Assembly (NCBI GenBank): GCA_016841565.1
Contig: JAENYX010000003.1
Span: forward strand, 14,030-78,029
Origin: Clostridium thermobutyricum
GTDB taxonomy: Bacteria; Bacillota; Clostridia; Ch29
Length of the DNA stretch: 64,000 nucleotides
Reading direction: 5' to 3'
The position numbers and the translations under genes were made by a program. This document shows, piece after piece, positions 48,459 to 50,612 of the stretch. The notes beneath the pieces were generated by a model. That model saw nothing but the letters and a program-made list of their open reading frames with translations, had not been told where the DNA came from and made no database searches. Position 1 is the stretch's first letter. Every line of letters begins with the position of its first letter.

Positions 48459-50612
48459 GTGGATTTTAAAACCCAGGACCACTTAATTAAAACGGAGGGT
48501 TCGCCTGATTCCGGTTGCTTGCCAAAAACGCCGGTTTGGAATATTATATTAATAACATTAAAGTGTAAAAGTGGTGATGATACCATTTACAACAAAACAC
48601 TTTTTATTATTCTGACAGTAATTCTATTCACTATCTTCCCATTCACTCAAAAACCCGGCACTTATGCATCGGGAACCAGCCTGCCGCAGGTGTTGAATGT
48701 GGGTGTAGACCCCAGCCTGCCTCCTTTCCAGTTTTTGGACAACGGAGAGCTGACCGGGCTTAATATTGATGTTTTAAATTCCATTGCGCTGGTTAACGAC
48801 ATTCGGATCAACTACATACCTATGAATAAGGATATCAGTATTGACAAGCTTTTAAGCGGAGAGGTAGACATGATACTGGGCATCAGATACGATGCTGCTT
48901 TAGCCGGGCATATAGATTATACCGAGAGCATAGTGCAGTCGGTGGTATGTATGCTTGCCAAATCGGAAATTCACAAGGAGATCCAGGCCAATCTGAACAG
49001 CGCTCCCTATCTGGCCAGCGTTGAGAACAACTCGGCAGAGCTCAGCTTCCTTTACAATCTCAGGAGGGTGAGCTATAACGTTGCCTTCAGCCAGGAGGAT
49101 GCCTTTGAACTGCTGCTGATCGACAGGGCGGACTTTCTGCTGGGGGTTAAGGATACGGCCGAATACCTGCTGAACAAGCATAACCTGTCCAGGGAATACA
49201 CCATGATAGACAGCTATGTCACCCCGGTGGAATTCCTGATAGCGGTAAGGCCCGAGAATACAAGGCTGATGAACACGATAAACTATGGGCTTAGCAGGCT
49301 GAAGCTGAGCGGCGAATACGAAAAGCTCTATTACAAATGGGTGGAAAACGGCGAGGCAAATATGGTAAGGCGTCTGGAGCGGGTTATAAGGCTGAGCCTT
49401 ATGGGCGCTTCAGTAATAGGCGTTGTTATTCTTATAGTTGCCGCATGGAATATCAAGCTCAAGGAGCAGGTAAATCTAAAGACAAAAGAGCTTTCCAAAA
49501 CCAACTCCGACCTGGAAGCACAAATCATAGAGACCAGAAACAACATCGAGCTCAAAAACCTTATTTGTGAAAGCAGCCCCAGGGGTATTGCCATATTCGA
49601 CCTGGACGGCGTCATATCGGTGTTCAATAACTCCGCCCTTGGTATAGCATCACTGACAGAGCCTCCTATAGACAAATCGATATATGATATTGAGCCCATA
49701 AGCCTGATGGTCAGGGGTACAATTGATGAAGTGTTGAAGAACAATGCCGCATACACCTGTGATGAGTTTAAGTACAGTAAAGCGGACAATGAATTCATAT
49801 ACAGATATATAATGTACCCTCTTCATGATTATGCAGAAAAACTAAGAGGTATCATAATAACCATTGAAGACATAACCGAAGAAAAAAGAATTAAGACCCA
49901 GATGATTGAAAGGGATAAAAACAGAGCGCTGACACAGATTATAGCCGGGATTTCCCATGAGATAAGAAATCCCCTGACCACAATCAAAGCCTTCATAGAG
50001 CTTATACCGGGCAAAATAGGCAATAAAAAATTCCGGGAAGAGCTGGCAGTGGTGGTGCCGGATGAGATAAAAAGGGTGGACAACCTTATAGAGAGCTTAA
50101 TAGACTATTCAAAGCCCAGGAGTCGGAACAAGACCACCGTTGATGTGCAGGAGATGGTAGCTTCATGCGCAGCCTTGTTTAAGCCGGTGCTGGAACAAAA
50201 CAATATTGATATTTGCATGGACATTGCTGCAAATCTCAGAATATACTGCGATAAAAGCCAGATAAAGCAGGCCCTTATTAACTTTCTTCTTAATTCTATA
50301 GATGCGGTTATGGAGAAAAAGGAGAGGTGTAAGGATGGAAGTTATAAAGGCAGGATTGATATTGAGGGCTATACCGGCGGTGGTCATGAGGTTCTGACAA
50401 TCAGGGACAACGGAATTGGGATGGATGAGTCTGAGCTTGAAAAATCCTATGATATGTTTTACACCACAAAGGCAAAGGGAACCGGCCTTGGCATCCCGCT
50501 ATCGCTGCAGATGCTCAATATGAATAACTGTGAGGTGTCCATTAAGAGCCGCAAGAACATGTTTACCGTTATTACCCTGAGGTTTCCAGGACAGCGGGTT
50601 CAAGTAAGCTGA
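48459..50612 (+). CDS. sensor histidine kinase with a periplasmic solute-binding (PBPb / SBP_bac_3-like) domain, TM, PAS, HisKA and HATPase_c domains
   Basis: Periplasmic domain LNVGVDPSLPPFQF...; HisKA H-box ISHEIRNPLTT; G-boxes near the C-terminus. The start is uncertain (GTG 48459 lies inside the junction repeat; the native start may be internal). Confidence 0.8.
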   Translation: MDFKTQDHLIKTEGSPDSGCLPKTPVWNIILITLKCKSGDDTIYNKTLFIILTVILFTIFPFTQKPGTYASGTSLPQVLNVGVDPSLPPFQFLDNGELTGLNIDVLNSIALVNDIRINYIPMNKDISIDKLLSGEVDMILGIRYDAALAGHIDYTESIVQSVVCMLAKSEIHKEIQANLNSAPYLASVENNSAELSFLYNLRRVSYNVAFSQEDAFELLLIDRADFLLGVKDTAEYLLNKHNLSREYTMIDSYVTPVEFLIAVRPENTRLMNTINYGLSRLKLSGEYEKLYYKWVENGEANMVRRLERVIRLSLMGASVIGVVILIVAAWNIKLKEQVNLKTKELSKTNSDLEAQIIETRNNIELKNLICESSPRGIAIFDLDGVISVFNNSALGIASLTEPPIDKSIYDIEPISLMVRGTIDEVLKNNAAYTCDEFKYSKADNEFIYRYIMYPLHDYAEKLRGIIITIEDITEEKRIKTQMIERDKNRALTQIIAGISHEIRNPLTTIKAFIELIPGKIGNKKFREELAVVVPDEIKRVDNLIESLIDYSKPRSRNKTTVDVQEMVASCAALFKPVLEQNNIDICMDIAANLRIYCDKSQIKQALINFLLNSIDAVMEKKERCKDGSYKGRIDIEGYTGGGHEVLTIRDNGIGMDESELEKSYDMFYTTKAKGTGLGIPLSLQMLNMNNCEVSIKSRKNMFTVITLRFPGQRVQVS
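48461..48499 (+). repeat. cassette-junction repeat, copy 2 (frameshifted toxin tip plus RBS) fused onto the 5' end of the histidine-kinase ORF
   Basis: GGATTTTAAAACCCAGGACCACTTAATTAAAACGGAGGG. It translates as DFKTQDHLIKTEG, compared with GFKNPRPLN* in copy 1. Confidence 0.8.

Follow-up and report, generated by a model that had tools for sequence, protein, structure and literature searches.

The 64,000-nucleotide stretch of Clostridium thermobutyricum DNA analyzed here (the window) carries a toxin-like gene, an immunity gene and a sensor histidine kinase gene in succession. The junction of the first two genes, which joins the 3' end of the toxin gene to the ribosome-binding site (RBS) of the immunity gene, is found a second time just upstream of the kinase. 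Our analysis suggests, with a probability of about 60%, that this second copy is a relic marking the right edge of an orphan toxin/immunity island of ~2.1 kb (about 46442-48518) and that it lies outside the expression signals of the kinase. The original prediction had called the repeat a recombination scar of a toxin/immunity cassette. This was broadly right, but in our reading there is nothing unusual about the scar, which stems from a rearrangement tied to the insertion of an orphan toxin/immunity pair. The features of the island and of the kinase gene described below all lie on the plus strand.

The repeat search showed a direct repeat of 47 nt (copy 1, 47852-47898; copy 2, 48456-48502), in which 42 of 47 positions (89%) are identical, the alignment is ungapped and the start-to-start offset is 604 bp. 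A shorter repeat of 39 bp had been proposed at this position. The 39-mer at 47857-47895 does have a second occurrence at 48461-48499, which differs at 3 positions (100 shuffles gave an expectation of 0.00 matches), but the true extent of the repeat is 47 nt and not 39. The 1-nt insertion that had been claimed for the second copy does not exist, as the difference in the A-run is an A-to-T substitution without any indel. The Smith-Waterman score of the copy pair was 37, while the maximum obtained with 300 shuffled queries over 8 kb was 20, and the longest uninterrupted identical run was 16 nt. No similarity was found beyond the repeat ends on either side, at the DNA or the protein level, and the ends are sharp; near copy 2, no counterpart was found of the toxin sequence 5' of copy 1 or of the immunity gene 3' of copy 1. 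Both copies are unchanged in three independent assemblies of this species, namely the window, GCA_016841135.1 (L003) and the Logan assembly of ERR14940443 (L005), and the repeat is therefore not an assembly error.

Copy 1 is functional and corresponds to the toxin 3' end plus the immunity RBS, as had been predicted. It comprises the final 11 codons of the toxin (VNGFKNPRPLN, with 1 nt of the codon before), the TAA stop at 47884-47886 and the Shine-Dalgarno (SD) sequence of the immunity gene, GGGAGGG, at 47889-47895. Copy 2 has decayed. In the toxin frame it reads SGF, stop, NPGPLN, stop, where copy 1 reads NGFKNPRPLN, stop, and all three changes in its coding part are nonsense or non-synonymous (N to S, K to stop by AAA to TAA, and R to G). 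The arginine that was lost is the family-conserved Arg of the NPRPL motif. The SD sequence of copy 2 is CGGAGGG (48493-48499), with no ATG, GTG or TTG at 5-12 nt after it, and no second immunity gene was found 3' of copy 2. Copy 2 scored 37 against copy 1 and at most 17 against the 3' ends of the other members of the toxin family (91 other loci). Given this much greater similarity to copy 1, it derives from the same gene lineage. Most likely, copy 2 arose by duplication of the junction of toxin 3' end and immunity RBS, has no function and is decaying. A 10-nt word, C(C/T)GATTCCGG, which occurs after copy 2 and also in the region of the left edge of the island, was judged compatible with chance.

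Only 16 nt separate the end of copy 2 from the -35 hexamer of a predicted sigma-70-like kinase promoter (48519-48547), which consists of TTGCCA at 48519, a 17-nt spacer and the -10 TATTAT at 48542. The SD sequence GGTGAT (48573-48578) and a proposed ATT first codon (48585-48587) follow. We aligned the orthologous kinase loci (L006/L009, L093/L094, L007, L010, L012 and L095), the products of which share 74-83% protein identity. At the homologous place, L006 (grouped with L009), L007 and L012 have TTGTAA-17-TATTAT or TATGAT, L093 has TTGAAA-17-TAATAT, and upstream similarity among the orthologous loci ends at the -35. The SD sequence A(A/G)AG(T/C)GGTGA is found in all six kinase lineages, and the first codon comes 4-7 nt after it, in register with the K-T-L motif conserved in the signal/transmembrane (TM) segment. 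This codon is ATT in the window, L006/L009 (SD and codon at L006 ~9987-10001) and L093/L094 (L093 ~215-235), and TTG in L007, L010, L012 and L095. The lineages with ATT are the kinase of the window and its two closest orthologue lineages, the more distant orthologues having TTG. The promoter hexamers, their 17-nt spacing, the SD sequence and the place of the first codon are kept in orthologues with 74-81% identity. In L006, stop codons are present two codons 5' of the ATT.

These alignments argue that the kinase is most likely translated from ATT at 48585, giving a protein of 675 aa (48585-50612) with the Pfam architecture SBP_bac_3, TM, PAS, HisKA and HATPase_c, and that this ATT looks like a conserved non-canonical AUU start. 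An ATG at 48577, inside the SD sequence, was also considered as the kinase start and rejected, as it is out of frame and falls in different frames in the window and in L006, while the ATT or TTG is in register everywhere. AUU start codons occur in E. coli infC and pcnB. Compared with these two genes, the putative start of the kinase is an in-frame ATT placed 5-7 nt after a good SD sequence, is replaced by TTG in relatives and appears conserved in three lineages; unlike them, it has no known link to autoregulation of the IF3 type.

The mechanical open reading frame (ORF) of the kinase (48459-50612, 717 aa) has a GTG start within copy 2, as originally predicted, and the public call (P0012) agrees with it at 717 aa. 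This call probably arises because the frame is open and gene callers cannot pick ATT, and the 42-codon extension back to the GTG at 48459 is most likely a gene-calling artefact and not a part of the kinase. The other possibility, that the kinase is really translated from GTG 48459 and that the repeat codons form its N-terminus, seems to us highly improbable. Besides the open frame and the automated annotation, it could draw on the fact that no canonical in-frame start is near the homologous start; the one remaining candidate, the TTG at 48519, coincides with the -35 hexamer. However, about 100 kinase homologues of 650-685 aa align with the 717-aa ORF only beyond its first ~45 residues and offer no counterpart of the extension, which would span the conserved -35, -10 and SD sequences of the kinase and has no good SD sequence of its own. 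Island-less relatives have the same ATT at the same codon, and a hydrophilic leader of 45 residues before the signal/TM segment would be atypical for the family. The proposed in-frame fusion of repeat and kinase is most likely not a functional one, as promoter, SD sequence and first codon all lie 3' of copy 2 and are kept in orthologues without a toxin. The kinase 5' end was indeed uncertain, as had been suspected, but the cause of this appears to be the ATT start and not the island. As two lineages without the island (L006/L009 and L093/L094) share the ATT, this uncertainty is older than the island and independent of it. The non-canonical start also appears to make gene callers shorten the orthologues, for which the automated calls are discordant (674, 650 and 652 aa, against 717 aa in the window).

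Downstream of the kinase are a sigma-54 response regulator gene (50646-51998; RR-Sigma54_activat-HTH_8) and genes of a TAXI-TRAP transporter. This order of kinase, regulator and transporter is conserved in all orthologous loci (the same operon is present in L003, L005, L009, L010 and L012). In contrast, no toxin gene and no immunity (DUF7957) gene was found in the seven orthologous kinase loci of other species (L006, L007, L009, L010, L012, L093 and L095), which bears out the view that the toxin/immunity segment is an insertion. The 39-mer was likewise found in none of the seven; its presence at the kinase start of toxin-less relatives would have refuted the original prediction, which withstood this test.

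The left edge of the island carries a relic of its own. A stretch of 35 nt (46407-46441) abuts the truncated 5' end of the toxin and matches the 5' part of the kinase coding sequence at 48732-48766 (FLDxxxLTGLNI), with 29 of 35 positions identical (83%) and an exact run of 18 nt; its local score of 40 exceeded the best of 500 shuffles (31). The left relic and copy 2 have diverged to a similar degree (6/35 and 5/47 mismatches, respectively). Each edge of the island thus holds a short, direct and diverged copy of a sequence lying a few hundred bases off, taken from the kinase at the left edge and from the toxin end at the right edge. No recombinase or transposase gene is present in the ~6 kb flanking the island on each side, and its neighbors in the window are genes for thiolase, CoA-transferase, SDR, permease, 3HCDH, cyclase, histidine kinase, response regulator and TRAP proteins.

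We propose that the island was inserted, in this species only, between the cyclase gene and the promoter of the operon for kinase, regulator and TRAP transporter. Its cargo would consist of the C-terminal ~475 codons of a large transglutaminase-type toxin, the DUF7957 immunity gene and a hairpin. Both edge relics would be filler that an illegitimate insertion or rearrangement left at the joints, short stretches either templated or duplicated, and would have drifted afterwards. This model explains the sharp ends of the repeat, the absence of a second immunity gene, the relic at the left edge and the similar divergence of both relics.

Several observations weigh against this reading. The neighbors 5' of the kinase differ in every orthologue (an insertion sequence element, panBCD, azlCD and others). 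An empty site, with the cyclase gene adjoining the kinase, was not found; a contig scan with the kinase gave only two useful loci (L006 and L007), neither of them an empty site, and the island ends are placed where homology stops. The three genomes that bear the island are nearly identical and provide no polymorphism data. For the kinase, the frame is open back to GTG 48459 with a weak GAAG 5 nt 5' of that GTG; initiation at ATT is deduced from the aligned loci, and the promoter is predicted from its match to the consensus and its conservation. Finally, the filler or template-switch origin is read only from the anatomy of the joints, and much the same picture would be expected from a fossilized older module or from a tandem duplication with later deletion.

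The first of these two, the fossil, seems unlikely to us, if less so than the extension of the kinase considered above. It supposes that copy 2 was once the end of an older toxin of this lineage, which had an immunity gene of its own downstream, that a newer pair of toxin C-terminal domain (CT) and immunity gene recombined in upstream, and that the old toxin body and the old immunity gene were later deleted, leaving the last 30 nt and the RBS. Downstream displacement of older CT/immunity pairs is the accepted origin of orphans in contact-dependent growth inhibition (CDI) and Rhs loci (PMC4927057, PMC10539506), copy 2 decayed as a pseudogene does, and two tandem DUF7957 genes are present in many loci of this family. 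However, with only 16 nt between the RBS of copy 2 and the kinase -35, at least two further and very precise deletions would be needed. There is no trace of a toxin 5' of 48456 or of an immunity gene 3' of 48502, the 64-kb window holds no full-length toxin gene, and the kinase relic at the left edge is left unexplained by this model.

The original prediction also held that the cassette was inserted, or can be swapped, by homologous recombination and that bracketing repeats are a trait of such cassettes. Under this active-cassette explanation, the 47-nt junction would be a recombination or attachment site, at which a circle with the immunity gene and spacer (557 bp) integrated through a single crossover, and this segment could still loop out or be exchanged; the junction left by looping out would join the left half of copy 1 to ...GGAGGGTTCGCCTGATTCC. 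Sharp-ended direct repeats that flank a cargo are what a Campbell-type integration would produce, and the GC content of the immunity gene (28.9%) differs from that of the toxin gene and of the spacer. A borderline analogue also exists in one group of gut metagenomes. In L037 (5126-5192; also in L044, L050, L058, L061, L080, L084 and L087), the second DUF7957 gene and a hairpin are followed by a sequence that weakly resembles the toxin 3' end. It reads FYTIGNFRPM against FNSFGNFRPL, stop, and 1 of 300 shuffles scored as well, which is borderline given the about 40 independent loci tested.

On the other side, the two copies share overall 89% identity and an identical run of 16 nt at most; present-day homologous swapping is therefore unlikely. 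The homology used by known orphans for recombination and reactivation is the conserved region 5' of the toxin domain (PMC4927057, PMC10539506). No recombinase gene is near, the three sequenced strains are identical without any excised or variant allele, and an ancestral toxin fragment lacking an immunity gene would be required. Flanking repeats scored 23 or less in all 81 other toxin/immunity loci, against 37 here, so that, apart from the borderline gut group, no comparable repeat brackets such cassettes, and no junction repeat was found in L001 and L002. We consider an active cassette very unlikely at this locus, and hold to an ordinary scar. The most speculative idea, to which we give slightly less weight still, is a general one, in which the junction of toxin 3' end and immunity RBS is a short-homology docking site where immunity cassettes (gene plus terminator) are inserted or looped out behind orphan toxins. 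If it were true, such docking would be a route of cassette exchange distinct from recombination 5' of the toxin domain, and the human-gut metagenome relic would be a second instance.

The toxin-like gene beside the repeat does have a toxin end, as had been described, but it is an incomplete gene, truncated at its 5' end. We regard it as an orphan fragment of a polymorphic toxin (46459-47886), which comprises a scaffold part (46462-47460) and a C-terminal domain with a Tne2-like NADase fold (~47461-47883). An in-frame TGA at 46456-46458 closes the frame, and the first ATG codons are at 46579 and 46585. The ORF is listed at 46579-47886, and the public call starts from 46585 and has 433 aa. Homology to other toxins begins at 46462, which corresponds to residue 72 of P0002, itself a related orphan toxin, and to residue 549 of P0118, a 977-aa protein with Transglut_core. 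As the alignment starts from residue 549 of P0118, at least ~550 N-terminal residues are gone from the toxin. No full-length relative was found in the 64-kb window, where tblastn of P0001-P0003 matched only 46462-47883. A tblastn search of plasmids with the toxin domain gave no match, and the exact look-up of the toxin product of the window (P0001) found no contig.

The CT of the toxin (the last ~130-140 residues) had 1585 representative homologues at E<=1e-3, in which the domain is always C-terminal. A conserved F.NPRPL motif closes the domain in this family. Its scaffolds include LXG, Transglut_core, VWA/TSP3 and Y_Y_Y, and it is also carried by P0003, the N-terminal part of which looks FHA/CdiA-like by eye. 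No Pfam or NCBIfam model matched the domain at E<=0.01, and its profile gave only a weak match in the PDB, to Tne2 (E 0.27). The AlphaFold (AF2) model, built from an alignment of 25 sequences, had a predicted local distance difference test (pLDDT) value of 96.1. Its best PDB match by Foldseek was Tne2 (6b12_A; E 4e-4, probability 1.00, TM-scores 0.60/0.70), and further top matches were Serratia Rhs1-CT (6xtd_A), Tse6 (4zv0_A) and fungal NADases. From this model we infer that the domain has a Tne2/Tse6-like NADase fold, and NADase activity is predicted.

The immunity gene (47901-48260) encodes a putative DUF7957/PF25857 family member of 119 aa, and its GC content of 28.9% compares with 44.7% for the window. 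PF25857 is given by precomputed Pfam annotation for the identical protein in L003/L005, P0006 and the L001 neighbor; the local Pfam scan gave none, the model being possibly absent there. The protein is 37% identical to the product of the gene that follows the toxin P0003 in L001. A homologue search with the immunity protein returned the query itself only. In 79 of 81 other loci (L001, L013-L092), the gene after the toxin CT encodes a homologue of the immunity protein, and this pairing gives strong guilt-by-association support for a cognate toxin/immunity pair. In many of the L013-L092 loci, two tandem DUF7957 paralogues come after the toxin, as in L037 (4014-4349 and 4620-4970).

Between the immunity gene and copy 2 is a spacer of 195 nt (48261-48455). 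It contains a strong hairpin at 48372-48415, an inverted repeat with a fold z-score of -3.4 and no clear T-tract, which is likely the terminator of the toxin/immunity unit. The spacer and the intergenic region between cyclase and toxin, searched against all fetched loci, gave only chance words of 12-17 nt, with the one exception of a word of the kinase relic that matches the homologous kinase site in L010/L011. The spacer begins with an open stretch of 27 codons (48261-48345), LKVEDGEEILAGVYDSKQVKFVPPTAG and a stop, which continues the frame of the immunity gene right behind its stop codon. Its GC content of 45.9% is host-like, and it may be the 3' remnant of an earlier gene; no homologue of it was found.

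Some further observations concern the surroundings. In the ERR14940443 strain, homology to the window sets in precisely where the cyclase gene ends at its 3' side (window 45600, L004 8053). Left of this point, that strain has Ldh_2, DUF4213 and TctABC instead of the 3HCDH/CoA-transferase/thiolase operon. A second breakpoint of rearrangement between strains lies here, next to the island. Contigs also break within the island itself, that of GCA_016841135.1 at 46417, inside the kinase relic, and those of ERR14940443 at 47306-47312, just 5' of the toxin domain. These breaks suggest that other copies are present elsewhere in those genomes, for example a parent toxin that shares the scaffold. The one hit of an Rfam scan over 45500-49000 was a sub-threshold CRISPR-DR50 match (46321-46365, E 0.73), taken as chance. 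On the contig of the related orphan toxin P0002 (L002), positions 1-130 form a structured-looking, GC-rich segment with a terminator-like hairpin and a T-run at its end, which might be the 3' terminus of an RNA gene or riboswitch.

Among known systems, the island comes closest to the orphan CT/immunity modules of polymorphic toxin systems, and it can largely be counted as one. Like the orphan cdiA-CT/cdiI and rhs-CT/rhsI modules (PMC4927057, PMC10539506), it has a truncated 5' end with part of the scaffold and a variable C-terminal toxin domain, an immunity gene directly next to it in the same orientation, a CT shared by unrelated delivery scaffolds, and fragment relics nearby. It differs from arrays of such modules in that the 64 kb hold no full-length parent toxin and the island stands alone between housekeeping operons. 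It also differs from the cdiA-CT and rhs-CT orphans in that its repeat is the toxin 3' end plus RBS instead of the conserved stretch 5' of the toxin domain, and in that no transposase or integrase is near. Integron-like site-specific cassettes have a recombinase nearby and a site that recurs at other cassettes; here no recombinase gene is near, and no comparable repeat was found in 81 other loci.

The CT appears to share its fold with the NAD(P)+ glycohydrolases of the Tne2, Tse6 (Tne1), Serratia Rhs1-CT and TNT types; the sequence identity is 13-19%, with no match to the Pfam families (TNT/DUF4237). The NADase nature of the Tne2, Tse6 and Rhs1-CT toxins has been reported, and their immunity proteins are mutually unrelated (PMC10539506). 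Tne2-like domains have also been reported in putative effectors of type VII secretion systems (T7SS) (PMC10539506), and the CT family of the window occurs on LXG (T7SS) scaffolds. Judged by its structural model, the toxin domain is of the Tne2/Tse6-type fold and belongs to no curated family at the sequence level.

For annotation, our results mean that the public kinase call of 717 aa is probably ~42 codons too long, and that its closest orthologues are called too short. A large family of C-terminal toxin domains without a Pfam model is now tied to DUF7957 as its immunity partner. The locus is a clean, small example of an orphan toxin/immunity pair of the predicted NADase type, placed between housekeeping operons without mobility genes and with copied fragments at both joints. 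It may be of some use for understanding how such modules spread by illegitimate recombination.

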